Sequence record: OZ335961.1
Source: a phage
DNA: 64,000 nucleotides
Direction: 5' to 3' (one strand)
Part shown: positions 3,227 to 61,356 of the stretch, in pieces
Layout: each line of letters starts with the position of its first letter
How positions within the stretch are numbered: position 1 is the first letter of the stretch
Position numbers and translations under genes: made by a program
The notes under the pieces: model-generated
Told to the model about the DNA's origin: nothing
Seen by the model: the letters and a program-made list of their open reading frames with translations, nothing else
The model's database searches: none

Positions 3227-3267
3227 TTTCTAATCTCCGTAATTCTGTATCAGTAGTTGATAGTTGT

Positions 3268-3297
3268 ATAGTACCACAGTATGCTTTGGTTGTAAAC
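3268..3297 (-). promoter_or_regulatory. T4-type early promoter
   Basis: minus strand TTTACA -17 nt- TGGTACTAT, leader with GGAG before motA ATG. Confidence 0.7.
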
Positions 3298-3322
3298 CGT
3301 TTTGTGAAAAAATTTTTGAAAT

Positions 3323-3350
3323 AAAAAAAGGGAGAGCCGAGGCTCTCCCT
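3323..3350 (-). terminator. intrinsic terminator hairpin
   Basis: GC-rich inverted repeat gggagagcc/ggctctccc followed on minus strand by T7 run. Confidence 0.7.
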
Positions 3351-6378: not shown

Positions 6379-6406
6379 TTTCTGTTCCTCCGTAGTTGAT
6401 AGGGTA

Positions 6407-6436
6407 ATAATACCACAGAGGAACAGTCTTGTAAAC
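6407..6436 (-). promoter_or_regulatory. T4-type early promoter
   Basis: TTTACA -17- TGGTATTAT on minus strand. Confidence 0.65.
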
Positions 6437-6443
6437 AACTTTT

Positions 6444-6542
6444 TTAAAAATATTCGTAATAAATGTGAATACCAACTACTACCGCTGAAACTTGCGCAAC
6501 CCACCACGCACAAGCAATAAGCACAGAATTCAAAATTTTCAT
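6444..6542 (-). CDS. small membrane protein (32 aa)
   Basis: hand-read, GAGG SD. Confidence 0.3.
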   Translation of the reverse strand: MKILNSVLIACAWWVAQVSAVVVGIHIYYEYF

Positions 6543-6621: not shown

Positions 6622-6894
6622 TCATAGTTCAATCTCAGCGATTTTCATTTCATTACTATTAATAGCCGCTTTAAGACTATCTGAAAGAATTACATCCCAG
6701 TGGTCATTCATATGACCATTAACTAAGCGTGTAATTTCTTCGGGAGTTGAAAAATAAGGCGTATCAGACTCCCAGTGTGATAATCCCAAACGAGTATAAA
6801 TCATGCCTTCATCATCGCTAGAATATTCAACTGACACAAACTCATCAGTTATTTTATGTTTAGCGTAATAAAATTTAAATTTCATTTTACTCAA
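6622..6894 (-). CDS. hypothetical protein (90 aa)
   Basis: ORF. Confidence 0.55.
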   Translation of the reverse strand: MSKMKFKFYYAKHKITDEFVSVEYSSDDEGMIYTRLGLSHWESDTPYFSTPEEITRLVNGHMNDHWDVILSDSLKAAINSNEMKIAEIEL

Positions 6895-7097
6895 TAATCC
6901 GCTAAAAGATCGACGATTGTATCACGAAGACATTTATTCGCAATACGTTTAAGAGCAATTTCAGTTTCTGGAGCATTTTGAATAATCATCGAATTCAATT
7001 CAGCCTCAGCAAACTGAAGTTCTTTAACTAATTCAGCTTTATATTTTCCTTGCCCTTTCTTAGCTTTTGCTCGTTTTAATTCAGCCGTAGTAAACAT
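6891..7097 (-). CDS. hypothetical protein (68 aa)
   Basis: true ATG after conserved leader GGAGAATAAA; track extension translates the promoter. Confidence 0.5.
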   Translation of the reverse strand: MFTTAELKRAKAKKGQGKYKAELVKELQFAEAELNSMIIQNAPETEIALKRIANKCLRDTIVDLLADY

Positions 7098-7131
7098 TTT
7101 ATTCTCCAAATCCGTATCAGTTGATAGTTGT

Positions 7132-7161
7132 ATAGTACCACAGTCCTTGTGGTATGTAAAC
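7132..7161 (-). promoter_or_regulatory. T4-type early promoter with spacer dyad
   Basis: TTTACA -17- TGGTACTAT; spacer has CCACAAGGACTGTGG dyad. Confidence 0.7.
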
Positions 7162-7177
7162 CGTTTTGTGAAAATTT

Positions 7178-7735
7178 TTAAATGGAAAGATACCATCCGT
7201 TGTAGTTGCTTTTTCTTACAACCTTACGAAGGTCTTCTCTATCACCGATGAACTTCGGAGTGTACTGGATGACACCTGGATGAATTTCTTTAGTGTTGAA
7301 TATAATTATACAGTCAGCGACCTGATGATTCAGAATGGGCCCTAGATTTATTCCAGAACCATATGGATACTCTCCGCTGCATCCTGTTGTTACAGAAATC
7401 CAACGTGAGTCAGTTTGATGTGTCTTAACTTCTACACGAATCCCGCAGTATCTTGGATGCGCCAATACATCCCATGCGTATGTATACGGGTCATTAACAT
7501 CCTCTTGGCCTTTGTTAACATACCCGCTTAGCCAATCTGCTACAAAAAACTCTGCGTACACCGCGATACGACATCTTTCGATAACTTCTGCTTTATCCTG
7601 GTTCGGGTTTTGTTTTAAAGAGTATCTTGTTGTATCAGCAATTTTGACCTTCATTTCACTAGTCAAGTCACTGTTCGATAGGGTAAATGTCGGAATCTGA
7701 AATAGTCTCTGTAAACCCGGATTCGTTTTCTGCAT
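7178..7735 (-). CDS. denB: endonuclease IV (DenB)
   Basis: 185 aa; size and position between ndd and rIIB. Confidence 0.75.
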   Translation of the reverse strand: MQKTNPGLQRLFQIPTFTLSNSDLTSEMKVKIADTTRYSLKQNPNQDKAEVIERCRIAVYAEFFVADWLSGYVNKGQEDVNDPYTYAWDVLAHPRYCGIRVEVKTHQTDSRWISVTTGCSGEYPYGSGINLGPILNHQVADCIIIFNTKEIHPGVIQYTPKFIGDREDLRKVVRKSNYNGWYLSI

Positions 7736-7997
7736 TTAGACTTTCCTTTTTACCGCTGAGATAAGCGTTATATACTTTAAGAGTGCCGTAATAAATTCGG
7801 TCATTTTCATCTAAAGACTCACGGTCAAGTTCATCGAGTTCCTTTTTATCCATGACTATAATATCATTGCAGTAAAGAAACCCAAGTTTTTCGTGACCAA
7901 ACTCAAATTTATTGCAGTACACAATATTAGCGTGATGATTTCCGTGCAGTTTAATCTCTTTTATGTCGGAATCACCGATATTCATACAATAAATCAT
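7668..7997 (-). CDS. hypothetical protein (109 aa)
   Basis: ORF; overlaps denB 5' end. Confidence 0.45.
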   Translation of the reverse strand: MIYCMNIGDSDIKEIKLHGNHHANIVYCNKFEFGHEKLGFLYCNDIIVMDKKELDELDRESLDENDRIYYGTLKVYNAYLSGKKESLNAENESGFTETISDSDIYPIEQ

Positions 7998-8016
7998 AAT
8001 TTTTCCTTAAAACAAA

Positions 8017-8031
8017 AGGGCCGAAGCCCCT
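8017..8031 (-). terminator. UUCG-tetraloop hairpin followed by U-rich tract
   Basis: minus strand GGGGCUUCGGCCC then UUUUGUUUU. Confidence 0.55.
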
Positions 8032-8035
8032 TATT

Positions 8036-8230
8036 TTATTTGAATTGTGCAATTCTTTTTTCTAAACAATCTGCGTAAGATTTCATTGAGATGAACTGTG
8101 AAAGCAGTAATTCTTGCTCAACTTCATTAATCGTTAGAAACTTTGTGCTTTCTAAAAATTTGCTCAGTGCATTAATTTTGAGCATTAATTGATCGTATTC
8201 TTCTTTTACTCGTGCTTGATAACCTAACAT
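8036..8230 (-). CDS. hypothetical protein (64 aa)
   Basis: ORF downstream of rIIB. Confidence 0.5.
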   Translation of the reverse strand: MLGYQARVKEEYDQLMLKINALSKFLESTKFLTINEVEQELLLSQFISMKSYADCLEKRIAQFK

Positions 8231-8246
8231 AATTTTCCTTAGTTAA

Positions 8247-8258
8247 GGGCCGAAGCCC
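8247..8258 (-). other. UUCG-tetraloop RNA hairpin
   Basis: gggccgaagccc at rIIB stop. Confidence 0.5.
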
Positions 8259-9197
8259 TTATTTAAATTGTTCAGTAACGTCTTCAACTACTTCGTATTG
8301 GCAAGTACGCATTTTAGCATCGTTGTAATCAATCGGAATTGATACTACATCACGCGGATGCACTTTAACTTTTACAACTCGGCTGGTTGAACTGCCAAAG
8401 TGACGAATATAAGATTTAGAACATACATGCAGACCGCGAGAACAAGTTTGTGTATCATCGTCATTCACACGAGTACGTGGCATTTTAACTACTTTACCAG
8501 GACTGTTATCAAAAGTATTTGAATGGCAGTCAAAGTAATTACTGCGAACTACTTTCCAAGCATAGAAGTAGCCGTCTTCCGTAATTTCAATATCGTTTGC
8601 TACCAAGAAATCAAAGAGTCGAGATACCGCCTTTTGGCTCGGGTTTTCTAACAGATTTTCCAAGAACGGAAAATAAAATTCAAAGTTTTCGCCTTTTTCC
8701 ATCGAATCGAGAATACGATCAACTAAACCAGACCGCAATTCAATATTTTGATAGAACAAGCTTCCACCTTCAATTCGAACATCACCAGAAATATATTTTT
8801 CAACAGCGCGACGAACGTTAATTTTTTGCGCTGCTTCTTCCAATTTATCTGCAACAAGCAGATTAAGAATTTCCTGGAAGTTTGAATGAGTATTAGGAGT
8901 TGCGTTATAAGTTACACCGTCAACAGTAATTGAAATGAATTTTTTAGATGCATTCCAAATAATGTCAGATTTAGCAACTGGAGCAATAGCTGTATCGCTA
9001 TTAACTTTAACAGTAATGTCACCGCTAATAGTAACTTTGGAACGCTCAGCTTCTTCAGCATTTTTCAAAACACGACGGATTGTGTCAACCGATACACCTT
9101 GCCAATCAGCCAATTCCTGTTGGGTGTAATTACCACTTAAATACAGTTTAACAATTTCAGCTTGTTCGTTTTTGGTCAGGCATTTAATATTGTACAT
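8259..9197 (-). CDS. rIIB: rIIB membrane-associated protein
   Basis: 312 aa; recognised, adjacent to rIIA. Confidence 0.9.
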   Translation of the reverse strand: MYNIKCLTKNEQAEIVKLYLSGNYTQQELADWQGVSVDTIRRVLKNAEEAERSKVTISGDITVKVNSDTAIAPVAKSDIIWNASKKFISITVDGVTYNATPNTHSNFQEILNLLVADKLEEAAQKINVRRAVEKYISGDVRIEGGSLFYQNIELRSGLVDRILDSMEKGENFEFYFPFLENLLENPSQKAVSRLFDFLVANDIEITEDGYFYAWKVVRSNYFDCHSNTFDNSPGKVVKMPRTRVNDDDTQTCSRGLHVCSKSYIRHFGSSTSRVVKVKVHPRDVVSIPIDYNDAKMRTCQYEVVEDVTEQFK

Positions 9198-11625: not shown

Positions 11626-11655
11626 ATTATACCACATCCTTGTGGTAAAGTAAAC
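11626..11655 (-). promoter_or_regulatory. T4-type early promoter
   Basis: TTTACT -17- TGGTATAAT; spacer dyad CCACAAGGATGTGG. Confidence 0.7.
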
Positions 11656-13472
11656 TACTGGCTCATCCATTCTTTACGAAGGTCAGCATTATCCCCCATG
11701 AGCATTTCAAAAAGCTCTTTCCAGTTCTCAGGAAGTTTAACAACATCATATACCGGATTTTGAATCATCTCACGATATTCAGATTTTTCCAAAGAGCCAA
11801 GTCCCTTAATATAACGGATGCTATGTTTAGGTAGAGCATCTTTGGCACTCTCATATTCAGCGACTGTATAAAACCATTCTTGTTTTTTACCGACCTGAGC
11901 GATGATTACAGGAGTTTTGACGAAGCGAATTCTTCCTTGTTCAAACAGTTCTGGCCAATTACTAAAAAATCCGAGCAGAGAAGGATAAATGCTTCCTAGA
12001 CCATCATGGTCAGCATCAGTCATAATAGCAATATTATGATAATTCAAGTTTTCAGCCTTTTCACCAAGAACTAATCCAGTGATTGCGCAAATATCAAACA
12101 GTTCTTTGTTTTTAAGCATATCAGCATATGACATACCCCAACTGTTGAGAACTTTACCACGTAATGGATAACCACCATGAAGTTCTTTATCACGAACATC
12201 AATAAGATATCCGATAGCAGAATCACCCTCAGTCAAGAAAAGAGTAGTGTCAGCGTCTTTACCACAAAGATTCGCTTTAATATGTTTATGAACTTTAGCT
12301 TTAGAAGCCTTTTTAGCTGCTTTAGTTTCTGCTGCTTTTTCTGCTGCCAATTTACGAGCCAAGGCAGCTTCAATAATTGGCATTAAAATTGCTTCATTAT
12401 TTAAAATAGCGCGTGAAATCTTTTTAGCATCAAGCTGAATATGACTACGAATTTCACCAAATGGAGAAGTCAAACGCTCTTTAGTCTGAGAATCAAATCG
12501 CATGTTTTTCATATCACGAACAAACATAACGATAGTCAAACATTCTTTAACACGTGCTTTAGTTACATCAATTTTGAATTTACGTTTGATTTGTGGAATA
12601 AGGTCTTCACAAATATCATCCATAACACAATCAATGTGATGGCCACCATTCTTAGTATGAATGTTATTGACGTATGTTAATTGACGAAAACCATCCGGTG
12701 AACGACCAACCGCAATAGAACAATTTTCTTGTTCTTGAACAATAGCATGCTCATCATATTGGCGTGCATATTTCTTAAAATTACCCTGAACCTTTTTACC
12801 ATTAAAGGTAAATTGAATATCAGGATAAACTACTGCAAGTGTCTGGAGACGATCCAGTGTAATGTCAAGATAAACTTGAGATAGCTCATTAGTTTCAAAT
12901 GACATAAAATCAGGAATGAAAGTAACGCGAGTTCCTTTCCATTTTCCAGGAATATCTTCCCATGATTTATTTTCCATGCCATTTGAACAACGAACTACAA
13001 TATTATTTTGACCGTCGCCAGTTTCACCGACAAACATCACAGAAAAAATGTTAGTTAAACTAGAACCAACACCGTTCATACCGCCAGTGACACGTTCTTT
13101 ATCATCACCGAAATTACCACCTGCTTTTGGAATAGTCCAGGCAGCAACAGGACCAGGAATTTCTTCACCAGTAGGTGTTTTAACCATCGCTTGTGGAATA
13201 CCACGACCGTTATCTTCAACTGTTACTTGATTGTTTTTAATAGTAACATTAATTTTATTTGCGAATTTAAACTTAGTACGAATACCTTCATCTACCGAGT
13301 TATCGATAATTTCATCAATAAGCTTAACAAGACCAGGTACATACTGAACACTTTCCCATTTACCAAACAGAAAGCGCTCATGCATTTCATTAGCGGAAGA
13401 GCCAATGTACATGCCGCTACGCTTTTTGATATGTTCAATATCGCTCAGAATTTTAATTTCATTCTTAATCAT
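11655..13472 (-). CDS. 39: DNA topoisomerase II large subunit (GyrB-like), uninterrupted
   Basis: 605 aa from ATG with GAGGA SD; N-terminus MIKNEIKILSDIEHIKKRSGMYIGS recognised. Confidence 0.9.
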   Translation of the reverse strand: MIKNEIKILSDIEHIKKRSGMYIGSSANEMHERFLFGKWESVQYVPGLVKLIDEIIDNSVDEGIRTKFKFANKINVTIKNNQVTVEDNGRGIPQAMVKTPTGEEIPGPVAAWTIPKAGGNFGDDKERVTGGMNGVGSSLTNIFSVMFVGETGDGQNNIVVRCSNGMENKSWEDIPGKWKGTRVTFIPDFMSFETNELSQVYLDITLDRLQTLAVVYPDIQFTFNGKKVQGNFKKYARQYDEHAIVQEQENCSIAVGRSPDGFRQLTYVNNIHTKNGGHHIDCVMDDICEDLIPQIKRKFKIDVTKARVKECLTIVMFVRDMKNMRFDSQTKERLTSPFGEIRSHIQLDAKKISRAILNNEAILMPIIEAALARKLAAEKAAETKAAKKASKAKVHKHIKANLCGKDADTTLFLTEGDSAIGYLIDVRDKELHGGYPLRGKVLNSWGMSYADMLKNKELFDICAITGLVLGEKAENLNYHNIAIMTDADHDGLGSIYPSLLGFFSNWPELFEQGRIRFVKTPVIIAQVGKKQEWFYTVAEYESAKDALPKHSIRYIKGLGSLEKSEYREMIQNPVYDVVKLPENWKELFEMLMGDNADLRKEWMSQ

Positions 13473-13526
13473 CACTTATCCTCGTTTGGTTTCGGGAATA
13501 TTATACTCCAATAATCATAAAGCTAA

Positions 13527-13540
13527 AGGCCCGAAGGCCT
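13527..13540 (-). other. UUCG-tetraloop RNA hairpin
   Basis: aggcccgaaggcct upstream of gene 39. Confidence 0.5.
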
Positions 13541-13541
13541 T

Positions 13542-13814
13542 TTATTTAAAACGGATAGTTGAATCCTTGAAGAATAGACCAGAACATACGGTTCCTTCTA
13601 CTTTCTGCCCGGTAGGTCCAATAGCGCGAAATCCAGTATGTTGGAAATCATTTTCAGAGCAACCGAACCAGTTATATCCAGTGATTTCAATATTAGTAAA
13701 ACCGCTTGAAGACAAAACTTTGGTTGCATTATCAGCATCAGTGCATCCTGCTAAAGACACTGCTAATACTAATGCCGCGATAGAACGATTAACATATTTC
13801 ATAATTTCACTCAA
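13542..13814 (-). CDS. putative lipoprotein (90 aa)
   Basis: signal peptide with lipobox LAGC. Confidence 0.55.
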   Translation of the reverse strand: MSEIMKYVNRSIAALVLAVSLAGCTDADNATKVLSSSGFTNIEITGYNWFGCSENDFQHTGFRAIGPTGQKVEGTVCSGLFFKDSTIRFK

Positions 13815-14994: not shown

Positions 14995-15093
14995 TACAAT
15001 TTCCTCATTAATTGAACATTGGAGCGATGCGTTTCAGAAGAGTGGCAGCACCTTTGGCAAATTTTCCATTTTATTCTCCAAGTTATTTTCTGT

Positions 15094-15136
15094 ATCAGTA
15101 GTTGATATTGATATAGTACCATAATCAACTACTGAT
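15094..15136. repeat. perfect 13 bp inverted repeat in a degenerate promoter cassette
   Basis: atcagtagttgat ... atcaactactgat flanking 17 bp. Confidence 0.6.
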
Positions 15137-34102: not shown

Positions 34103-34360
34103 TCAAATACAAGTAGTAATTACTCCAGTAGTGCTTACACAGGTATTACCTAATTGAACACCAAGCGTTCCATTAGTATTCATATGAAGATTATCATCAA
34201 TTTTTGTTGATACTTTACCATTCATGTGAATAACAGTATTAGATTCAATCACATTCTGAGTGTCATTTTCAATATCAATAAATGGAACAGCTGCTAATGC
34301 AACTAGAACAACTGCTAATGCAACTAAACACGCTGCTAAACAACCATAAACAGTTTTCAT
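34103..34360 (-). CDS. small membrane-anchored protein (85 aa)
   Basis: ATG MKTVYGC after conserved leader; track extension translates promoter. Confidence 0.5.
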   Translation of the reverse strand: MKTVYGCLAACLVALAVVLVALAAVPFIDIENDTQNVIESNTVIHMNGKVSTKIDDNLHMNTNGTLGVQLGNTCVSTTGVITTCI

Positions 34361-34394
34361 TTTATTCTCCAAATCCGTATCAGTTGATAGTTGT

Positions 34395-34424
34395 ATAGTA
34401 CCATGGAAGAACAGAGATGTAAAC
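34395..34424 (-). promoter_or_regulatory. T4-type early promoter
   Basis: TTTACA -17- TGGTACTAT. Confidence 0.7.
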
Positions 34425-34506
34425 CGTTTTGTGAAAAAATTTTTAATGAATTTACAGGACCTAGAATCATCTATTTTTCCTAAGTATAGATTTATATTAC
34501 TTGTAT

Positions 34507-34528
34507 GAAAAAGGGACCCGGAGGTCCC
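34507..34528 (-). terminator. intrinsic terminator
   Basis: hairpin gggacc-cgga-ggtccc followed on minus strand by U-run. Confidence 0.65.
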
Positions 34529-34541
34529 TAGATTTATTCTA

Positions 34542-37238
34542 TCAGCCAAACAGGAAGTCTAACGAAGCTTTTTCCTCATAGTCCATACCTGCCGATTCAC
34601 ACATGCCCGCAAGTGGTTTAACAAACGATTTTTGGAACAAAGTTGAGTAGTCAATCCAAGACAGTACGTCAGAACGAATTTCTTTTGGAAGTTCTGTGCC
34701 TGATGGCCAAGCAATGCACTTGTCACCAAATGGATTTCCCTCACGTAACGGAAGAACCATTACCTTATTTCCATCCAAAATTGGAGCTACACCTAAACCG
34801 CTAACAGCTCGACGATAAGTTAGCACACCACGAATATGGAACGGACATTTAAATCCTGGCCAACCTTTATCATCATATTTCGCTATATCGTTCGCAGTTT
34901 TTACTTCAGCAATAACTTTATAGTCAAGTTGACGATATTCTTTCTCAAAGTTCTTGTAGTATTCTTGGACAGACTCTTCACCTTCCTGAAGAATACGACG
35001 AATACTTTCTTCGAGAGCTTCTTGTACTGCTTTTGGTGTTGAACTCTGTTGAGTTTCCATACCCATAATTTTTAGATGCGGTTCGGCAAATCGCTTATCT
35101 TCCATATCATAAACGTTCAGAGCATAACGTTTTTTCGCTTTCCAAAATCCACCGACACCCTTTGAACCAAGCGGAGGGCAAGAAATAGCTTCACGGTCCA
35201 TATGCATCAGATGCTCGCGGTTATTCATATAATCACATAACTCACGATATGCAACATCAATCATAGGTTCCATCTTTTTCTTACCAAACTGATTCATGAA
35301 TTCAACTAAATCATTTTGTTCTTTAAAGCGATCAAGACCTACTTTTTCAATAACTTTATCTACACAAACATATACAGAATCAGTATCACCTGCTGCGATG
35401 AAATCTTCACCATTAGTTCCACATACTTTATTCAGATATTCATTAATTTTGCGAGCAATCCACTGAATACCGACTTGACCGAAAATTGTGATAGCAGTAG
35501 CATTTCGCAAATCATAGTAACGGAAATGAATATTACCAAGAGCACCATAAAGACTGTTAATAAGAATTTTACGGTTCAGCTGATTTGTGTTAGCAAGTGT
35601 AGCTGCTTTTTCACATTCTTCGATCAGACTATTAAGAACAGATTCGGTGTAATTCGATAATTCGTTTAAGAAATCATCATTGAACTTAACATATCGTTCA
35701 ACTTCTGGTTTAGTTGAGCAAGACCCTGCACCTTTCATAATAATCTTTTTAATAGCTTCGGCATTCATTTCTTCAGCGAACATTTTCTTTTTCCAATCTT
35801 TACGCTGGAAAAATACTTTAGCGATTTCCTTTGGAATGATACCTTCTTGGTGCTTATCATACATCCATCCATTCGGAGAACAAGAATATTCATCACTTGG
35901 CTTAGGAGCTGTTCCTGCGATATATTCATGAATTGGATGAACTTTAAACTGCCCACGAATAGTCTCAGGACTAATGTTAACCTGACGAATAATGCTAGGA
36001 TACAGAGACGTCAAGTCAAAACTCATAATGTATCGACGAGCAATCGGTTTAGGTTCAAACACAAATGCACCTGGAAAACTCTGTTTAACGTGCGAACCTT
36101 GTTGAGGAATAACCTTATGTTCACCTTTCAGTGAGTTAAAAATAATAGCATCCCAAGTTTTAATAGGACTCATTACACCAGAAAAAGGCATTTTAGCGTA
36201 ATAAGACATACTTAAAACTAGATCGATAAACCCACGAATTTTATCAATTGCTTGAACTGATTCTACGTCAATGATGTTATAACTAATGTATCGTTGATGA
36301 TTAGTCTCACGAAGTTTATTAATAGGACCATCATACGGCAATTTACCTTTTTTGGTTTCATGTTGAGCAACTGATTCCAAAGAGAACGATGGCAAATTAG
36401 TAAATGCGAATTTCTTGTACAAATCTAAATAATCAAGAATAGATACGCCATCAATAGAATAAATTTCTTTGCTACCGTACATATTTTGAATTAGTTTAGA
36501 TTTTACTCGACCGATTGGAGAGAAGCGTTTCATACTACGTTCACCGAGAACCATTTTAACGCGATTCATGATATACGGAACGTCAAATCCCTCAATATTC
36601 CAACCGGTAAAAATAGCAGGTCGTTTCTGTTCCCAGAGATTAATATATTCCATGAGCATATCACGCTCATTATCAAATGGCATATAAATTACTCGGTCAA
36701 GAATTTCTTGAGGAACTTCATCACCACCTTCACAGTCAAGCTTAGCAGCTAACTTTGCATCCCATTTTGATACTGAACCGTACATTGAATTCAACAAATC
36801 AAAGACGTAAAAACGGTCGTCAATTGAATCATAATGAGTGATAGCATCAATTTCATATTCTGCTTTCATTGGGTCAGGAAATTTATCACCAGTAACCTCA
36901 ATGTCACAGTTAGCTACACGAACAAATTTTCGGTCATAAACAATTTCTGAACCATATGTATCACTGATATAAGCGAGTTTAAAATCGTTCATACCGAGAG
37001 CTTCGAGACCGATGTCTTCCATTCGCTTCATCCAGTCTCGCGCATCTTTCATTGATGGAAATTTTTGAGGAGCGCAATTTTTACCATAAATGTCTTTGTA
37101 TTTTGACTCTTCCTTACAATGCCTAAACATAGTCGGAAGATATTCTACTTCACGAGTACGTTCCTTTCCGTTTTCATCAATATAACGTTCAACAATATTA
37201 TTTCCGACTGTTTCGATAGAGATATAAAATTCTTTCAT
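34542..37238 (-). CDS. 43: DNA polymerase (family B)
   Basis: 898 aa; recognised. Confidence 0.95.
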   Translation of the reverse strand: MKEFYISIETVGNNIVERYIDENGKERTREVEYLPTMFRHCKEESKYKDIYGKNCAPQKFPSMKDARDWMKRMEDIGLEALGMNDFKLAYISDTYGSEIVYDRKFVRVANCDIEVTGDKFPDPMKAEYEIDAITHYDSIDDRFYVFDLLNSMYGSVSKWDAKLAAKLDCEGGDEVPQEILDRVIYMPFDNERDMLMEYINLWEQKRPAIFTGWNIEGFDVPYIMNRVKMVLGERSMKRFSPIGRVKSKLIQNMYGSKEIYSIDGVSILDYLDLYKKFAFTNLPSFSLESVAQHETKKGKLPYDGPINKLRETNHQRYISYNIIDVESVQAIDKIRGFIDLVLSMSYYAKMPFSGVMSPIKTWDAIIFNSLKGEHKVIPQQGSHVKQSFPGAFVFEPKPIARRYIMSFDLTSLYPSIIRQVNISPETIRGQFKVHPIHEYIAGTAPKPSDEYSCSPNGWMYDKHQEGIIPKEIAKVFFQRKDWKKKMFAEEMNAEAIKKIIMKGAGSCSTKPEVERYVKFNDDFLNELSNYTESVLNSLIEECEKAATLANTNQLNRKILINSLYGALGNIHFRYYDLRNATAITIFGQVGIQWIARKINEYLNKVCGTNGEDFIAAGDTDSVYVCVDKVIEKVGLDRFKEQNDLVEFMNQFGKKKMEPMIDVAYRELCDYMNNREHLMHMDREAISCPPLGSKGVGGFWKAKKRYALNVYDMEDKRFAEPHLKIMGMETQQSSTPKAVQEALEESIRRILQEGEESVQEYYKNFEKEYRQLDYKVIAEVKTANDIAKYDDKGWPGFKCPFHIRGVLTYRRAVSGLGVAPILDGNKVMVLPLREGNPFGDKCIAWPSGTELPKEIRSDVLSWIDYSTLFQKSFVKPLAGMCESAGMDYEEKASLDFLFG

Positions 37239-37296
37239 AGATATTCCTTAGTTTATAGCCCGAGTTATTAGGCTCTTGATATATTATACTCCAAAT

Positions 37297-37315
37297 AAGG
37301 GGCCGAAGCCCCTTG
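37297..37315 (-). other. UUCG-tetraloop RNA hairpin
   Basis: aaggggccgaagcccctt overlapping regA stop. Confidence 0.5.
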
Positions 37316-37316
37316 C

Positions 37317-37685
37317 TTAATTACCAATCGTATATTTAGGAACGAGTTTCCATTCATGTTTTTGTTTAAAAGAAATAACTCGGAAGTTATTAGTTAAATC
37401 TTTCATAAAAGTTCTTTGACCAGGAACGATTTCAATCAGTCCCCAATCTTCTAACAGCCACGCAATCGAATCACGGCGAACTTCATCTTCTTCTGTCATT
37501 TCAACCTGACGGCCATCCATACGAAGCATTTCTTTAAAATGAACGATATAGTATAGTCCTTTTTTCTGAAGAATGTGGCAGGACTGATACAGAACTTTAT
37601 CTTTATTATTAGCAATTCCCATACGAGTCAAAGTTTCTTTTACTTTCAGAAAATCTTCAGGTTTTTTAAGAGTAATTTCAATCAT
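37317..37685 (-). CDS. regA: RegA translational repressor
   Basis: 122 aa; recognised. Confidence 0.9.
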   Translation of the reverse strand: MIEITLKKPEDFLKVKETLTRMGIANNKDKVLYQSCHILQKKGLYYIVHFKEMLRMDGRQVEMTEEDEVRRDSIAWLLEDWGLIEIVPGQRTFMKDLTNNFRVISFKQKHEWKLVPKYTIGN

Positions 37686-39211: not shown

Positions 39212-39246
39212 AATTTCCTCATTCAAGTTTTAGTGTAAATTATAAA

Positions 39247-39258
39247 GGGCCGAAGCCC
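39247..39258 (-). other. UUCG-tetraloop RNA hairpin
   Basis: gggccgaagccc between 45 and 44. Confidence 0.5.
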
Positions 39259-39262
39259 TTTA

Positions 39263-39949
39263 TTAAAAATCGTGGGTAGAATCAGCTTCAAGAGCTACTA
39301 CATAATTCGCATGTTCACCTTCAAATTTAGCAGCGCCTTGTTTACCTTTTGCCCAGAGCAGAAGTTTATAATTTCCTGGTTGCATTTTCATATTTGCCAT
39401 ATTGATAATGAAATTAAATGTATTTTCACCATCATAATCACCAAGAGTCAAAGAATATTTAACACGGGTCAAAGCAGAATCTTCTACTTTGTTAAAACCG
39501 TTAATTACGATTTTACCTTCTTTTACTGTGATAGCAATTGTATCAATCTGCAGACCGCGAGATACACGCAACAGCTGTTGAAGGTCTTCAGCTTTAATTT
39601 CGGTAACAACAGATGCTACCGGGAATGGAATTGGTTTATTAGGAGCAACTACTGTACTTGGATCGGCTGCTGGCCAAAAAATTGTTGAACGAGCATCAGC
39701 AATTTTAATATTTCCATCTTCTGACTGGGAAATTTCTGCATCGTCATTAACTAGGGACAGAATACCGAGAAAACCGTTCAAATCGTAAATTGCTACATCA
39801 AAATCAATGGTGTCAGAAATATTTGCTTCCGCATAAGTTGTACCATTAACTGCGCGAGTCATAATAAATTGACCGGATTTAAGCATAATACCAGAGTTAA
39901 TAGTAGCGAAATTTTTAAGCAGAGCAGTAGTATCTTTAGACAGTTTCAT
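39263..39949 (-). CDS. 45: sliding clamp
   Basis: 228 aa; recognised. Confidence 0.92.
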   Translation of the reverse strand: MKLSKDTTALLKNFATINSGIMLKSGQFIMTRAVNGTTYAEANISDTIDFDVAIYDLNGFLGILSLVNDDAEISQSEDGNIKIADARSTIFWPAADPSTVVAPNKPIPFPVASVVTEIKAEDLQQLLRVSRGLQIDTIAITVKEGKIVINGFNKVEDSALTRVKYSLTLGDYDGENTFNFIINMANMKMQPGNYKLLLWAKGKQGAAKFEGEHANYVVALEADSTHDF

Positions 39950-43793: not shown

Positions 43794-43956
43794 ATATCAA
43801 GAACCGTCATTGAAATGCAAAATAAAATTATTGAAATAAATCCATCTGGAGTGCTAAAGAACCCAATCCAACACGCTCTAGTGAATAGATAAAATGCGAG
43901 AAAAAGTATCACATATCCAAGAAATATCATTATATCAAACTCCGTATAAAGCTAAA

Positions 43957-43968
43957 GGGCCGAAGCCC
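43957..43968 (-). other. UUCG-tetraloop RNA hairpin
   Basis: gggccgaagccc at a-gt stop. Confidence 0.5.
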
Positions 43969-43969
43969 T

Positions 43970-45172
43970 TTATTTTGTAATAATGTCAAACTGTTCTTTA
44001 AAACAGAAGCTTGAATCTTGATGCTGATACAAAAATTCATAAGCTTTTTCACGTTCACGGTCATAAAGATTTCGGTCAGATGACAGTTCTTTAATACGCT
44101 CAAATGTTGATTCCATGTCATTTTCATCAAACCAAACGATACCGCTATCATGAGAAATTAACGGAGTATTATCAACACGGAATTTTAAATTTTCGCCAGT
44201 AGATTTCCAAAATACCGGAATTGTTCCACACGCACCAAGCTCGAGATGAGTATATTCTAAAGAACGTTGTAGATATTTTTTATCTAATTTACTCAGCTGA
44301 TAACCAAATCCGGATTTACTCATGCGTTCAAGCATTTCGCTATTTACATAACGGTCAAGAATTTGCGTTGGCAAATTAGGAGCAATTTTAATTTGGTCTA
44401 CTTGATGAAGACGATAATACTCGTATGGAATTCCTTTTTCTTTAATAGGAATGAACGCTGGAGAACGTTCCAGACCTTCCATAATAGTACTTAGTCCTGC
44501 AGGTTTAAGATGTTTTTCGTGAAAATCAAACATCTGATAAAAGCCTTTCCATGTAGTCGTACGACCAATCCAACGGTTGACATTCATGTTAATTTCAGAA
44601 ACATCTTTCCAGTAGGTTGATCGAACCTTCACAATATCCATAGGAGGCTGAAAGTTGTATACAGTCGGTGCTTCTTCAATATCATCAAACAGTGAAACAG
44701 TTTCTGGATACCATTCTTTCATCAAAACTTTATTAAAATCGCCATTATCAGAATGACTAAAAATAACATCAGCTCGACGAACAGTTTCTTCTAATCCCAA
44801 ATTTCGGCGCAAAGAAAGAGAAGAATGGTCATGTTGATAAACTACAACACGAACCGAAGGTTTAATGTTATCAATAATTTTTTTATAGTTATTAATAGTG
44901 TCTTCTTCGACTGAAGTAGCAGGAACTGAATTGATAATTAGAATATCACAATCATTTACCAGCTTAAGTGTTTTATCGTATTCTTTTGCCAATAAAACCG
45001 GAATTGAAAATGATTTATAATCATGCGCGCAATTACGGGTAAATGATTTATCTTTAGCATAAACCAAAGTTACTTCATGACCATTTTTAATAAACCAATC
45101 ACGTTGCTCAAGAGAAAATTTAGTTACGCCACAACCTTCAAGACCTCGAGCCATAAAAATGCATACTTTCAT
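43970..45172 (-). CDS. a-gt: DNA alpha-glucosyltransferase
   Basis: 400 aa; recognised. Confidence 0.88.
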   Translation of the reverse strand: MKVCIFMARGLEGCGVTKFSLEQRDWFIKNGHEVTLVYAKDKSFTRNCAHDYKSFSIPVLLAKEYDKTLKLVNDCDILIINSVPATSVEEDTINNYKKIIDNIKPSVRVVVYQHDHSSLSLRRNLGLEETVRRADVIFSHSDNGDFNKVLMKEWYPETVSLFDDIEEAPTVYNFQPPMDIVKVRSTYWKDVSEINMNVNRWIGRTTTWKGFYQMFDFHEKHLKPAGLSTIMEGLERSPAFIPIKEKGIPYEYYRLHQVDQIKIAPNLPTQILDRYVNSEMLERMSKSGFGYQLSKLDKKYLQRSLEYTHLELGACGTIPVFWKSTGENLKFRVDNTPLISHDSGIVWFDENDMESTFERIKELSSDRNLYDREREKAYEFLYQHQDSSFCFKEQFDIITK

Positions 45173-47555: not shown

Positions 47556-47595
47556 ACATTATCCTCAATTACATTAAAATTTTATTATCCAAAAA

Positions 47596-47609
47596 GGGCC
47601 GAAGCCCTT
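47596..47609 (-). other. UUCG-tetraloop RNA hairpin
   Basis: agggccgaagccct. Confidence 0.45.
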
Positions 47610-47808
47610 AGCTAAACTGTTTGGCACCCTTCCAGCCTTCGTACATCATTGCAGCTGATATTAATATTGCTCCTGCGCATTTTGAATATTTGTGATTCCA
47701 AAACCAATTTAGAAAAACTTCGTCATCAATACCTTGGGCTATCATATTTTCAAAGAACTGGCGACGAGCTTCAGCAATTCGTTGCGATAATTTAGATTCA
47801 GGATTCAT
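47608..47808 (-). CDS. hypothetical protein (66 aa)
   Basis: ORF. Confidence 0.45.
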   Translation of the reverse strand: MNPESKLSQRIAEARRQFFENMIAQGIDDEVFLNWFWNHKYSKCAGAILISAAMMYEGWKGAKQFS

Positions 47809-49206: not shown

Positions 49207-49677
49207 TTAATCATGTTTCCACACCCCATCGGTATTTGACCAAAGTCGCTGATTATCTGATCCTCGCCACAGCTTTTTGGTCGGAAGATTTTTCTCATAC
49301 TTCCCATCAATAATAACATCAACATATTTAAGCATTTCTAGTTGTTTAATATCTTCAAACTTATATCCTGTCCACAACCAAATGCTTTTATTGGGATAAA
49401 GATTTTTTACTGTTTGAACAATGCAATGAACAACATCTCGGTTATCAGGATAGAGGGGGTCTCCTCCAGTTATAGTTAATCCTTCTATATAATCATTATT
49501 CAAACATTCAATTAATTGCTCTAGTGTTTCACCAGTGAATGGAATACCATTTCTAGCATTCCATGTTGATTTATTATAACACCCCTCGCATTTATGCAAA
49601 CAACCTGTAACGAAAAGAACGACCCTGCATCCAGGGCCATTCACAAAATCGCAAGGATAAAATCTATCATAATTCAT
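49207..49677 (-). CDS. nrdG: anaerobic ribonucleotide reductase activating protein (radical SAM)
   Basis: 156 aa, CxxxCxxC; recognised. Confidence 0.9.
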   Translation of the reverse strand: MNYDRFYPCDFVNGPGCRVVLFVTGCLHKCEGCYNKSTWNARNGIPFTGETLEQLIECLNNDYIEGLTITGGDPLYPDNRDVVHCIVQTVKNLYPNKSIWLWTGYKFEDIKQLEMLKYVDVIIDGKYEKNLPTKKLWRGSDNQRLWSNTDGVWKHD

Positions 49678-56376: not shown

Positions 56377-56406
56377 ATTATACCACATCCTTGTGGCGAA
56401 GTAAAC
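56377..56406 (-). promoter_or_regulatory. T4-type early promoter
   Basis: TTTACT -17- TGGTATAAT; spacer dyad CCACAAGGATGTGG. Confidence 0.7.
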
Positions 56407-57434
56407 TAGTTTAGTGCATTTAGTGCATTGCTCAGTTTAGAACGTTGCTTCGTAAGATTTTTGACTTTTTCTTGAGCTTTTTCTAGCATCTTTTCAGCTT
56501 CTAACACTTCATTAGTTGCTTTAACGAGTTCATCATCTACTGCCTTGATAGACTTCTCAATCGCATCCGCGTGCCATTTTTCAACAGGTTTAAGACTCGG
56601 ATTTTCAACAGGAAGAAAATTCACTTTATTGAATTTCCATGCATCCTCATTACCTGAGCTATACATCCAAAATTTAGGATCGTTTGATGAGCAATTGGAT
56701 AAATTTAAGTTATAGTTATCTTGTACTTCCTGTTTTTTCTCTTGCGGGATTTCGTCCTTTCTCAAAAAATCATATTTAAATGAAACGATCATATCAAGTT
56801 CATATGTTGTTGTGTCTAATTTAAATCGCTCAAAACGGGGTAAAATCTTAGACTGAACAGCGGCAACAACATCCATATACTTAAATGCTTCTGTCAACTG
56901 CGATTTAAGGCATTCGCAAATTGAAAGAGAATTTTTTGTATTAGGTTTAAAGCTAATTCGTGCAGTTCTGTTATTTTCTTTTAATGGTCTTACTTCCATC
57001 TGAAGAGTATAACCATCAAATTTCAGGTTCTTTAAATTAATGTCAGAACCTTTTAATCGACTAGCCGTCGACAAAATTTGCTTTAATTGTTTACGGAATA
57101 GAGCAATAAATCTCCATTCAATACGATAATGATTTGGATTGAAAAATCCAGATGATAAATCGACCTTACTTTGACCAACGCCTTGAACAAATAGAGGATT
57201 TTTATAATCAATAGTTTTACAGAAATCGGTGAGCTGCTCACGAGCCGTCATTTGTGTAATATACCCCGCTTTACTAAAATTACTCACCCATTCACTGCTA
57301 TTTAGATATTTAAAGTGATGAATAGCACGATTAACTTTATCAGGGTCTAAATTATTTTCACACAAAAATGTCATAACATTACGAGTATCGCTGGCAATAC
57401 GAACCATATCTTCAATTTGAGAACGAGTTTTCAT
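56406..57434 (-). CDS. coiled-coil protein, paralogue family member C (342 aa)
   Basis: paralogue by shared motifs. Confidence 0.55.
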   Translation of the reverse strand: MKTRSQIEDMVRIASDTRNVMTFLCENNLDPDKVNRAIHHFKYLNSSEWVSNFSKAGYITQMTAREQLTDFCKTIDYKNPLFVQGVGQSKVDLSSGFFNPNHYRIEWRFIALFRKQLKQILSTASRLKGSDINLKNLKFDGYTLQMEVRPLKENNRTARISFKPNTKNSLSICECLKSQLTEAFKYMDVVAAVQSKILPRFERFKLDTTTYELDMIVSFKYDFLRKDEIPQEKKQEVQDNYNLNLSNCSSNDPKFWMYSSGNEDAWKFNKVNFLPVENPSLKPVEKWHADAIEKSIKAVDDELVKATNEVLEAEKMLEKAQEKVKNLTKQRSKLSNALNALN

Positions 57435-59331: not shown

Positions 59332-59359
59332 TTTGTGTTCCTCCGTAGTTGATAGTTGT

Positions 59360-59389
59360 ATAGTACCACAGAGGAACAGTCTTGTAAAC
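59360..59389 (-). promoter_or_regulatory. T4-type early promoter
   Basis: TTTACA -17- TGGTACTAT. Confidence 0.7.
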
Positions 59390-59391
59390 CA

Positions 59392-59706
59392 CTAAAAGAA
59401 ACTTCTTTCACAATTTTTTCCACTGAACCAAGCGCTCACTGCTTTCTTAGTCTCAGGAGCAGTGTTATCCATAAACCATTCAAAGGCAGCCTTTTTGTGA
59501 TTCTGGAGGGCTTCTCGGGCTTTAATCTGCTCACGGTCTATTAACACTAACATATGAGCCTTTCTTGTCACCATGGGCTTCTTATGATTTTTTGAATACT
59601 CCCAGTCATTTGTCCATCGCATTGTCGTTGCGAACTGAAATACAGCTTCTTTAATCTTAGTTTCGTAAATTTCACGAGCCTTTGAGTATAACATCACTAC
59701 CTCCAT
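59392..59706 (-). CDS. hypothetical protein (104 aa)
   Basis: ORF. Confidence 0.5.
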   Translation of the reverse strand: MEVVMLYSKAREIYETKIKEAVFQFATTMRWTNDWEYSKNHKKPMVTRKAHMLVLIDREQIKAREALQNHKKAAFEWFMDNTAPETKKAVSAWFSGKNCERSFF

Positions 59707-59794: not shown

Positions 59795-60763
59795 TTATTT
59801 CAGAAGAGTAACCTCAGCGATTTCTTCCCAACCGTTTTTGTCGGTCATAATAAAGTCAGCAAGATAAAGAGCAGTACGCAGTGAAACATTGCGTAAACGA
59901 TTAACATTAACTTTCATCCATGATAATGCTTTATAAGTTTCTTCATCAGAAAGACCGCGCTTTTGCATCATGTCAGTTGAAAGAATAACATCTTCAACCC
60001 TGACCATAATTTCTTCATTAGTGTGAACACCCAAATCCAAATAAACCGAGCGGGACACTAATGCTTGTAAATGTGGAGCAAGTTTAGTACCACGGTCTAA
60101 TTCGCGGTCAATGTCAACGTTTGTGATAAAAACAATCGTTCCTTTAAATTCAAACTCACGCTCAATGCCTTTTTCTTCTAAGTAAGAAGACGCAGTACTC
60201 CAGCAGACTTTACGGGTCTCTCCAGTGTCCAGAGCGGCTTTTAGAAGATTAAGAATATCCATATCAGAGAAAACATCCACATCATCAATCAAAAGGACAG
60301 AATTCTCTTCACGATTATTCCAAAGCTGCTCATAAAGACCAATACCAGAGATTTTACCATTAATGCTTTTATATTCAATGTATCCAATATCATTTGCTTT
60401 ATTCAAAGCTTTATCTAAAGAATACGTTTTACCAATACCTGCAGCGCCAGAGATAATCAATGAACGAATATTTCCATTAATAATACCATTCGTCATCATT
60501 CCCATAACATTAAATCTTTTATTAATGCGGGTTTTCATATCTTCATACGATTCTTTAACTTCTTCAACTTTTACACCATCATATGAAATATCTGATTTGT
60601 AAACCCAAACACCGCGACGTTTACCGTCAATTTCAACAAAAACTTTACCATCTCCTTGTGCATCTACCGGAGCATTATCTGGGAACCATTCGCCTAAGAG
60701 CTCAAAAGTTCCAGAGATTTCTTTACCGAAGTAGATACCCTTATTGATAGTTACAGTTTTCAT
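59795..60763 (-). CDS. P-loop NTPase (322 aa)
   Basis: Walker A SGAAGIGKT, Walker B VLLIDDVD; ATG after GGAGAATAAA leader. Confidence 0.6.
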   Translation of the reverse strand: MKTVTINKGIYFGKEISGTFELLGEWFPDNAPVDAQGDGKVFVEIDGKRRGVWVYKSDISYDGVKVEEVKESYEDMKTRINKRFNVMGMMTNGIINGNIRSLIISGAAGIGKTYSLDKALNKANDIGYIEYKSINGKISGIGLYEQLWNNREENSVLLIDDVDVFSDMDILNLLKAALDTGETRKVCWSTASSYLEEKGIEREFEFKGTIVFITNVDIDRELDRGTKLAPHLQALVSRSVYLDLGVHTNEEIMVRVEDVILSTDMMQKRGLSDEETYKALSWMKVNVNRLRNVSLRTALYLADFIMTDKNGWEEIAEVTLLK

Positions 60764-60799
60764 TTTATTCTCCAATTTCACATTTGTTTTGATAGGGTA

Positions 60800-60829
60800 A
60801 TAATATCACACTACTACCCTACTGTAAAC
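60800..60829 (-). promoter_or_regulatory. T4-type early promoter with stem-loop
   Basis: TTTACA -17- TATTAT; dyad TAGGGTA/TACCCTA encloses -10. Confidence 0.65.
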
Positions 60830-60832
60830 AAT

Positions 60833-61096
60833 TTATTTTAATGTTTGCCAAATTTTTACTGCTTCGCGACGAGATACTTCTACAGCTCCAAGTTCTACGG
60901 CTTTTTGGCGTCGGCGAGCATGTAAGTCATAATGTTTAATGCGTTTATCTTGAAACCAAGAACGTTTCATTCCTATTGCTTCTGCCATTTTATGAAGCTC
61001 TTCAATATCTCCATCAGTGAACATATGACAATTTTTAGTTGGATGACCGCGAAGTTTCCATCCATGATTCATTAAAACATCTACGTAAACTGTCAT
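60833..61096 (-). CDS. DUF4031-like protein (87 aa)
   Basis: pattern YVD...H....HM..D...ELH..A..IG; family assignment from memory. Confidence 0.5.
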   Translation of the reverse strand: MTVYVDVLMNHGWKLRGHPTKNCHMFTDGDIEELHKMAEAIGMKRSWFQDKRIKHYDLHARRRQKAVELGAVEVSRREAVKIWQTLK

Positions 61097-61242
61097 TGAT
61101 TCTGCTCCAAATATGTTTCTATAATTTTCTGAGCGAGATAAACTGCGTTATCTTCAGTTGCATCTTCTAAGAAATTTTCAAAATAAGCTGAAATTTCTTC
61201 TGTGTCAATCAACTTTTTTACTTCAATTAACGTAGTTTTCAT
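61093..61242 (-). CDS. small hypothetical protein (49 aa)
   Basis: hand-read; ATG after conserved leader; ATGA overlap with next gene. Confidence 0.4.
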   Translation of the reverse strand: MKTTLIEVKKLIDTEEISAYFENFLEDATEDNAVYLAQKIIETYLEQNQ

Positions 61243-61276
61243 TTTATTCCCCAAATCCGTATCAGTTGATAGTTGT

Positions 61277-61306
61277 ATAGTACCATAAAGCTTTATGCTT
61301 GTAAAC
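61277..61306 (-). promoter_or_regulatory. T4-type early promoter
   Basis: TTTACA -17- TACTAT. Confidence 0.7.
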
Positions 61307-61330
61307 CGTTTTGTGAAAAAATTTTGAAAT

Positions 61331-61354
61331 AAAAAAGGGAGCCCGAAGGCTCCC
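61331..61354 (-). terminator. intrinsic terminator
   Basis: hairpin gggagcc-cgaa-ggctccc followed on minus strand by U6. Confidence 0.7.
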
Positions 61355-61356
61355 TA

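Follow-up and report, generated by a model that had tools for sequence, protein, structure and literature searches.

Promoter-early stem-loop (PeSL) elements have been described in T4-like phages as an AT-rich region, an early promoter and a stem-loop, with a Shine-Dalgarno (SD) sequence and a start codon at the 3' end (PMC2839356, PMC4122927). About 100 bp of these elements are conserved, and the PST/T4 consensus of their promoter is TTTACW-N17-TAYWAT (Arbiol et al. 2010, PMC2839356; Comeau et al. 2014, PMC4122927). They are clustered in hyperplastic regions, beside gene 43 and the nrdC genes, and they mark the indels that set close relatives apart, for which mini-circles are given as the intermediates; one of the published examples, the ndd.4/.5 segment (Fig. 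6A in PMC2839356, PMC4122927), directly adjoins a locus that is described here (copy A below).

Two other described systems bear on the same kind of sequence. The marks of a T4 early promoter are a UP element rich in A, GTTTAC from -36 to -31, an extended -10 that is GT-rich, and a T at -7 (PMC2988021, PMC1524935). The nuclease RegB, together with ribosomal protein S1, acts on a target with the consensus GGAGRAYARAA, for which GGAGAAUAAAA is the T4 optimum; the GGA is invariant, and the cut is made between G and A (PMC1702504, PMC3014915). RegB sites are single-stranded and intergenic in early mRNAs, and they usually coincide with the SD sequence (Durand et al. 2006, PMC1702504; Uzan & Miller 2010, PMC3014915).

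Here we describe a leader that is repeated upstream of unrelated genes in a T4-like phage. The repeat is real, and it is of a kind that is already known, combining a PeSL element, a T4 early promoter and a putative RegB site. An earlier note on this DNA had read the repeat as a sign of module exchange; this was right in outline, while the published PeSL elements went unrecognised there.

A leader repeated at three loci of the early region

The window, by which we mean the whole stretch of 64,000 nt from record OZ335961.1 that was analysed, belongs to a T4-like phage and has 95-98% identity to Tequatrovirus genomes. It covers the counter-clockwise early region with motA, gene 52, ndd, denB, rIIB, rIIA, gene 43, regA, genes 62/44/45 and nrdC.x, and the neighbourhoods rIIB/denB/ndd, gene 43/imm and nrdC.10/11 back the assignment to Tequatrovirus. 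Judged by ORF size and position only, the window has a single ORF of 606 aa (11655-13475) where T4 has the split genes 39 and 60, and a single ORF of 605 aa (49674-51491) where the nrdD gene of T4 carries the I-TevII intron; by the same measure, several of the mob/seg endonuclease genes of T4 are apparently absent.

On the minus strand, the 34-mer ACAACTATCAACTGATACGGATTTGGAGAATAAA occurs exactly at 7098-7131 (copy A) and at 34361-34394 (copy B), and with a single mismatch, GGAG to GGGG, at 61243-61276 (copy C). The near-identity of these three sites, which the earlier note had pointed out, is thus borne out by two exact copies and one that differs by a single nucleotide; the chance expectation is zero, and 100 dinucleotide shuffles gave no match. 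Copy A is immediately preceded by denB, copy B by gene 43, and copy C by nrdC.11. The genes behind them are indeed unrelated, as had been claimed: their products belong to PHROGs 4535, 4189 and 6888. The main features of the three copies are as follows.

7095..7184, minus strand: copy A cassette, downstream of denB; ATG at 7095-7097
7156-7184, minus strand: UP/-35 block of copy A; TTTACA at 7155-7160
7143-7155, minus strand: spacer of copy A, holding a CCACA..TGTGG mini-palindrome
7132-7140, minus strand: TGn and -10 (TACTAT) of copy A
7098-7125, minus strand: 5' UTR of copy A; predicted transcription start (TSS) at ~7125
34358..34447, minus strand: copy B cassette, downstream of gene 43; ATG at 34358-34360
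34418-34423 and 34395-34400, minus strand: -35 and -10 of copy B
34361-34388, minus strand: 5' UTR of copy B; predicted TSS at ~34388; RegB/SD 11-mer at 34360-34370
61240..61329, minus strand: copy C cassette, downstream of nrdC.11; ATG at 61240-61242
61300-61305 and 61277-61282, minus strand: -35 and -10 of copy C, with the palindromic spacer CATAAAGCTTTATG
61243-61270, minus strand: 5' UTR of copy C; predicted TSS at ~61270; degenerate 11-mer GGGGAATAAAA at 61242-61252

Anatomy of the cassette

The likeness of the copies is wider than the 34-mer, each copy of which is the 3' half of a cassette of ~90 bp. The cassette consists, in this order, of an A/T-rich UP element with GTTTACA, a spacer of 13 nt, TGn with TACTAT and ACAACTATCAACT, and a leader of ~28 nt that ends in GGAGAATAAAA-TG. 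The UP/-35 block, AAATTTTTTCACAAAACGGTTTACA, is also common to the copies, and so are, on the other side of the spacer, TGGTACTAT and the 22-mer block TGGTACTATACAACTATCAACT, the latter of which occurs exactly at five places in the window and with three mismatches at a sixth; the 13-nt spacer itself is unrelated among the copies. Within the trio, identity is 0.79-0.93 in the UP/-35 block, 0.23-0.38 in the spacer (against a background of 0.30), 0.92-0.96 from the extended -10 to +13, and 0.96-1.00 in the rest of the leader, where other pairs of early promoters in the window reach a mean of 0.33. An 11-nt linker within the leader, GATACGGATTT, is identical in all three. The alignment therefore shows identity beyond the promoter hexamers, through the whole 5' UTR, the SD sequence and the ATG, and in two copies through the next two codons; the first codons, ATGAAAACT, are common to these two copies and to a further leader at 60753-60775 (family D5).

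The sequence GTTTACA-17-TACTAT lies at 7160-7132, 34423-34395 and 61305-61277, which at each copy gives a T4-type -35 and -10 with T at -7, a TG of the extended -10, and the A/T-rich AAATTTTTTCACAAAAC upstream of the -35. As the T at -7 is the last base of the hexamer, the starts of transcription would fall at ~7125, ~34388 and ~61270, dividing the 34-mer into a discriminator of 6 nt and a 5' UTR of 28 nt. The match to the consensus points to activity as early promoters of the host sigma-70 type, and at the position of copy B the record of phage SA20RB annotates a T4 early promoter with a terminator upstream. In their GTTTAC -35, A-rich UP element, extended -10 and TAnnnT, and in lying 5' of early genes that include motA, the cassettes resemble the T4 early 'uber' promoters (Hinton 2010, PMC2988021; Nolan et al. 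2006, PMC1524935). They differ from that class, of which the window holds about 20 members, in that the three copies share an identical 22-mer of -10 and initial-transcribed sequence and an identical 5' UTR beyond the class consensus.

The likeness to PeSL elements extends to the A/T-rich region, the TTTACW-N17-TAYWAT promoter, the SD sequence and start codon at the 3' end, and the length of ~100 bp. A stem-loop or terminator stands just upstream at copies B and C and at the related copy before motA:

34512..34529, minus strand: GC hairpin and T-run, AGGGACCTCCGGGTCCCT TTTTT, after gene 43 (copy B; an annotated terminator in SA20RB)
61336..61355, minus strand: GC hairpin and T-run, AGGGAGCCTTCGGGCTCCCT TTTTTT (copy C)

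Copy A differs in this respect. No stem-loop of the terminator type adjoins it, only the 5-bp CCACA/TGTGG palindrome of the spacer (fold of the upstream region, z = -0.73), so that the stem-loop part of a PeSL element is weak there. Elsewhere between genes of the window, another hairpin, GGGCCGAAGCCC (read as GGGCTTCGGCCC on the minus strand, where its tetraloop is UUCG), is repeated at 8008-8043, 8245-8272, 13518-13547, 37290-37319, 39237-39272, 43947-43982 and 47594-47621, and these sites look like a family of near-identical terminators.

The leader itself is unstructured (z = -0.24 to -0.47). Neither the segment from +4 to +70 nor the complete cassette folded better than shuffled sequences, and RNA structure in the leader was rejected. 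This bears on the proposal that leader and linker serve as operator RNA for a regulator other than RegB, such as a RegA-like repressor or a host factor. Nothing else explains the linker, which phage STML-198 has kept, and regA does lie in the window (37317-37685, assigned by position and length in comparison with T4), all of which such an operator would fit; it fits badly with a leader that lacks stable structure, with a linker that varies in orthologues, and with other leader types replacing this one behind the same promoters. RegA, moreover, acts mostly on replication genes, in which the AUG has other surroundings. We regard an operator of this kind as exceedingly improbable.

The leader ends in a putative RegB/S1 site

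At copy A, the 3' end of the leader reads as follows.

7097..7107, minus strand: GGAGAATAAAA, SD sequence and exact RegB/S1 consensus; its last A is the A of the ATG

This is letter for letter the sequence that Durand et al. require for efficient cleavage by RegB and S1 in T4. The exact 11-mer occurs four times in the window (7097-7107, 34360-34370, 15069-15079 and 60763-60773), each time at the end of a leader, against 0.47 occurrences expected. As in known RegB sites, the optimum GGAGAAUAAAA is present exactly, is intergenic, forms the SD sequence of an early gene and is predicted to be single-stranded; it stands 8 nt before the ATG, behind an early-type promoter and in an unstructured leader. 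Three points of difference should be set beside this: cleavage is predicted here from the sequence, the regB gene lies outside the window, and copy C, with GGGG, should escape. A tblastn search found no regB in the window, but relatives that bear the cassette do have it: in T4 the gene is located ~7 kb upstream of nrdC.10, and in a relative that overlaps the end of the window it is ~5 kb beyond that end.

The degenerate 11-mer of copy C (61242-61252, GGGGAATAAAA) departs from the RegB consensus, and since its GGGG breaks the invariant GGA, control by RegB cannot apply to every copy. For the others, agreement with an experimentally defined consensus argues for RegB control of the transcripts. 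The same GGGGAATAAAA variant is also found in Shigella phage vB_SsoM_113 and in the metagenome contig OBRH01000009.1; with the invariant GGA gone and the SD sequence weakened, the 49-aa ORF behind it may escape inactivation by RegB.

Partial copies and related promoters

Three partial copies had been listed in addition to the trio, and all three are real. They precede motA, a homologue of nrdC.8, and a short ORF between motB and cef.

3227..3310, minus strand: early promoter of motA, with the partial copy 3247-3267 (ACAACTATCAACTACTGATAC); same UP/-35 block and same 22-mer TGGTACTATACAACTATCAACT
59332..59402, minus strand: promoter of the nrdC.8 homologue, with the partial copy 59341-59359 (ACAACTATCAACTACGGAG); same 22-mer, short leader ACGGAGGAACACAAA
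15067..15161, minus strand: copy between motB and cef, with the partial copy 15075-15106 (ATCAACTACTGATACAGAAAATAACTTGGAGA); degenerate -35 (TATACA), 22-mer with three mismatches
6381..6449, minus strand: ndd.4 promoter, a related member of the family, TTTACA-17-TATTAT

The motA copy has a variant leader, ACTGATACAGAATTACGGAGATTAGAAA, and a terminator hairpin upstream at ~3325-3350, while the copy between motB and cef continues with the leader ACTGATACAGAAAATAACTT, an exact GGAGAATAAAA (15069-15079) and the ATG. The ndd.4 promoter is 90% identical over 67 nt to the copy at 59360, with which it has the same hairpin between spacer and SD sequence. In both of these (59332-59402 and 6381-6449, minus strand), spacer and TGn, CUGUUCCUCUGUGG, can pair with the SD region of their own cassette, CUACGGAGGAACAG; the resulting hairpin of 13-15 bp, which at 59332-59402 has 13-14 bp, holds the -10 and the TSS in its loop (z = -4.1 and -3.5). 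A read-through RNA is thus predicted to hide the SD/GGAG in the hairpin, which an RNA begun at the cassette's own promoter would not do. In the T4 orthologues, compared by hand, the pairing between spacer and SD is kept through G-U changes.

A second paralogous sub-family of promoters is formed by a pair of early promoters at 11626-11657 and 56377-56408, which are 94% identical over 32 nt, including the palindromic spacer CCACAAGGATGTGG.

Small genes behind the leader are exchanged at its SD-ATG end

For comparison we took the loci of T4, T2, AR1, SA20RB and relatives from metagenomes. Among these genomes, the genes that immediately follow the leader are variable at loci A, B and C, as one would expect if small genes are exchanged there. 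It had further been suggested that N-terminal extensions in the ORF track are artefacts of the repeated leader, and in all three cases the ORF list does run across the promoter: the ORF behind copy A is given as 101 aa (6891..7196) instead of 68 aa, that behind copy B as 148 aa (34103..34549) instead of 85 aa, and that behind copy C as 53 aa (61093..61254) instead of 49 aa. The corrected starts (68, 85 and 49 aa) agree with the CDS annotated in SA20RB.

Locus A, between denB and ndd, holds two small ORFs behind the leader:

6891..7097, minus strand: 68-aa ORF, PHROG 4535, behind copy A; variably present (T4 without, T2 with)
6622..6885, minus strand: 87-aa ORF, PHROG 2390; true start ATG at 6885 (the ORF list uses TTG at 6894)

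The 87-aa ORF is also variably present, and its last eight codons persist as a mini-ORF in T4 and T2. Both ORFs, either one alone, or neither can be found at this locus, and every junction is a TAAAATG(AAA) repeat:

This window: leader followed by the 68-aa ORF and the 87-aa ORF
Several metagenomic relatives: leader followed by the 87-aa ORF
T2: leader, then 68-aa ORF, then 8-codon remnant
T4: leader, then 8-codon remnant MKIAEIEL*, overlapping the start of ndd.6

The mini-ORF, MKIAEIEL* in T4 (7997-8020 of the compared stretch) and MKIVEIEL* in T2 (~680-706), is unannotated; it is the C-terminal leftover of the 87-aa ORF and corresponds to 6622-6648 of the window. Its stop overlaps the ATG of ndd.6, which suggests translational coupling.

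Locus B, between gene 43 and imm, has a single such ORF:

34103..34360, minus strand: 85-aa ORF, PHROG 4189, behind copy B

This ORF is present in 326 records, while the surrounding region is present in 539. In T4, T2 and RB32, which are without it, the same promoter and leader drive imm.1, and the junction lies at SD-ATGAAAA. The spacers found at locus B in the genomes compared are mosaics of two paralogous spacer types.

Locus C, between nrdC.11 and nrdC.10, carries a whole module that is absent in T4 and AR1:

60764..61242, minus strand: module of ~480 bp
61093-61242, minus strand: 49-aa ORF, PHROG 6888, behind copy C
60833-61096, minus strand: 87-aa DUF4031 ORF; second early promoter at 60800-60828
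59795..60763, minus strand: nrdC.10 homologue, 322 aa, behind a second copy of the leader, with the RegB/SD 11-mer at 60763-60773

The module is bounded by 21-nt direct repeats of the leader end, TTGG(A/G)GAATAAAATGAAAACT, at ~61234-61254 and ~60755-60775, and from these repeats an excised circle of 479-480 bp can be predicted. In T4 and AR1 nrdC.10 stands directly behind cassette C, and the module is probably absent from many other Tequatrovirus records as well, in view of a two-piece match of ~82%.

Taken over the three loci, the same leader is fused to at least eight different start regions in the genomes sampled, and the same promoter, recognised by its spacer and position, is followed in some genomes by another leader. 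Where one or two small ORFs are inserted or deleted at loci A, B and C, the indel stops at the SD-ATG(AAA) end of the leader. At loci A and B, the junctions join the leader end to a microhomology of 8-10 nt at another gene start and not two full cassettes; microhomology-mediated deletion explains them as well as homologous exchange between two PeSL elements does. In two respects this differs from what has been described for PeSL elements: Arbiol et al. proposed the A/T-rich upstream part as the place of exchange, whereas the junctions here are at the SD-ATG(AAA) end, and two of the three use only this short microhomology with another gene start. In other respects the loci behave as PeSL elements do, being present in many copies, before small ORFs of unknown function, beside gene 43 and nrdC, and at indels.

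Two further comparisons can be made. In the polymorphism of the T-even internal-protein (IP) locus (Repoila et al. 1994), as far as it is reported in PMC4122927, small non-essential early genes are likewise shuffled between conserved flanks, although at another locus. Integron gene cassettes offer an analogy of how such a system works, since there, too, ORFs without a promoter come to stand behind a resident one, and intermediates in the form of circles have been proposed; here, in contrast, there is no integrase and no attC, recombination would be of the general or microhomology type at promoter and TIR repeats, and the modules can carry a promoter of their own.

Distribution in related phages

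The 48-nt block from the -10 to the ATG is found at 2735 places in 540 phage records, and a query of 100 nt covering the cassette finds 2773 places in 545 records. Almost all of these are Tequatrovirus, with ~5 places (typically 4-7) per genome. T4 holds orthologous copies upstream of ndd.6, imm.1 and nrdC.10, and the orthologous copy A of T4 and T2 has the same spacer as the window. Scans of IMG/VR and of metagenomes with the exact 22-mer as query gave 20 and 26 stretches that are biased to conserved copies, and the conservation of the 22-mer among them is by construction; they were used only for the flanks.

Outside this genus, Salmonella phage STML-198 (Gelderlandvirus) has a copy of the block from -10 to ATG, TGATACTATACAACTATCAACTGATACGGATTCGGAGAATAAAATATG, without the GTTTACA -35, in the orthologous nrdC.10/nrdC.11 neighbourhood (1765-1830 of the compared stretch). 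Its identity is ~95%, while the flanks are too diverged for megablast, which points to strong constraint or to horizontal transfer.

In at least seven stretches from relatives, a further cassette is present at a locus outside the window. It has a spacer of the locus B type, TCCCTGTTCTTCCA, and a leader of the cef type, ACTGATACAGAAAACAACTTGGAGAATGAAATG, and the gene behind it starts with ATGGATAATTACGGCGAA. The idea of a strictly locus-specific spacer was rejected on account of this copy: a B-type spacer at another locus implies that a complete cassette, together with its spacer, was copied from one locus to another.

The short, multicopy and dispersed nature of the cassettes, together with this extra-window copy, might suggest that a mobile element with promoter and leader, either MITE-like or associated with homing, was recently duplicated or transposed, the more so as T4-like genomes are rich in homing endonuclease genes. 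The same locus and the same spacer are, however, found in T4, T2, AR1 and metagenomic contigs, so that the copies are old and fixed, and the 13-nt spacer is wholly different among the three copies. No endonuclease gene adjoins any of the three in the window. We have rejected this explanation, which we consider very improbable, because terminal inverted repeats and target-site duplications were not seen at the junctions in the locus alignments; the junctions are direct repeats of the leader.

What keeps the copies alike

The copies might also be alike through function alone. According to such a view each block is a consensus optimum reached by convergence, recombination plays no part, and the indels are coincidental. 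It can draw on the fact that, apart from the 11-nt linker, all blocks correspond to some described consensus, on spacers that are unrelated between copies and stable in orthologues, from which it follows that the copies are old, and on the Gelderlandvirus phage, in which the block from -10 to ATG is kept at ~95% despite diverged flanks. However, other early promoters in the window differ in -10, initial-transcribed sequence and leader (with the mean leader identity of 0.33 given above), and since these are functional early promoters, a promoter can evidently work without precisely this sequence. In orthologues the linker GATACGGATTT drifts (aatacgg, gatatgg, ACT insertion), yet it is identical in the three paralogues, and the indel junctions are placed exactly on the leader end at three loci, with swaps of leaders and spacers between genomes. 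We thus consider pure convergence to be unlikely.

The earlier note had attributed the near-identity to recent recombination-mediated exchange of modules. Exchange is upheld by the junctions and the variable ORFs, but 'recent' is only partly right, as each spacer is for the most part peculiar to its locus and is kept in orthologues, T4 among them, which makes the copies old, and part of the identity is functional consensus, first of a T4 early promoter and then of an exact RegB/S1 site. The near-identity is best explained by a mixture of shared ancestry, constraint on function and patchy exchange among the copies, and not by one recent duplication. A linker that drifts in orthologues and is identical in paralogues, together with the mosaics, indicates that patchy exchange probably helps to keep the copies alike, beside selection on the promoter and on the RegB/SD blocks. 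An indel of ACT was also considered as a sign of concerted evolution, since copies A and B of T4 read CAACTACTGATACGG, while the copies of the window are without the extra ACT; when more genomes were compared, the state of the indel did not consistently track the genome, and it could be due to recurrent slippage. We therefore take it as suggestive only, and the mosaic spacers of locus B are the better evidence of exchange.

In our view, the copies are very probably immediate-early promoter cassettes of the T4 type, that is, PeSL elements; we hold the RegB step within this reading with somewhat less confidence. The host sigma-70 RNA polymerase would bind the UP element, GTTTACA, TGn and TACTAT, and would start transcription ~7 nt past the -10. 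The unstructured leader of ~28 nt would then offer GGAG 8 nt before AUG-AAA, which should favour strong translation, until RegB and ribosomal protein S1 cut GGAGAAUAAAA between G and A. This cut would inactivate the mRNA minutes after infection, giving the gene behind the cassette a brief immediate-early pulse. At the level of the genome, the cassettes, as direct repeats of 50-90 bp with ~5 copies, and the TIR motif TAAAATGAAA at many gene starts may serve as substrates of recombination, either homologous or by microhomology, which would delete, insert or swap the small ORFs behind them; each ORF swapped in would automatically come under the promoter and acquire its ribosome site and decay signal as well. 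That ORFs are exchanged at the repeats is shown by comparative genomics of all three loci, as read from aligned sequences.

We can also imagine that the whole leader, including the linker GAUACGGAUUU, has been selected as a 'standard 5' UTR' that does more than supply the SD sequence and the RegB site, and that the capture of genes is anchored on the start codon. We doubt that this is so; if it were true, the leader would serve, for example, as a site at which some other factor, of phage or host, binds or acts in processing, and ORFs would be swapped in frame behind a fixed module of expression and decay, which would amount to a gene-capture system and not a mere recombination hotspot.

Meaning for T4-like phages

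For the annotation of this genome, the true starts of three ORFs are now fixed (68, 85 and 49 aa in place of 101, 148 and 53 aa), and ~20 early promoters are marked in the window. For the biology, the locus is a clean worked example of an idea already published for T4-like phages. What we add is modest and opens no new question: the exchange points are at the SD-ATG(AAA) end of the leader, where they coincide with an optimal RegB/S1 site. The cassette may thus be seen as a portable immediate-early unit, in which a strong promoter is joined to an open leader that has a strong SD sequence and a built-in putative RegB decay site; it is at the same time the site of exchange for the small genes that land behind it.
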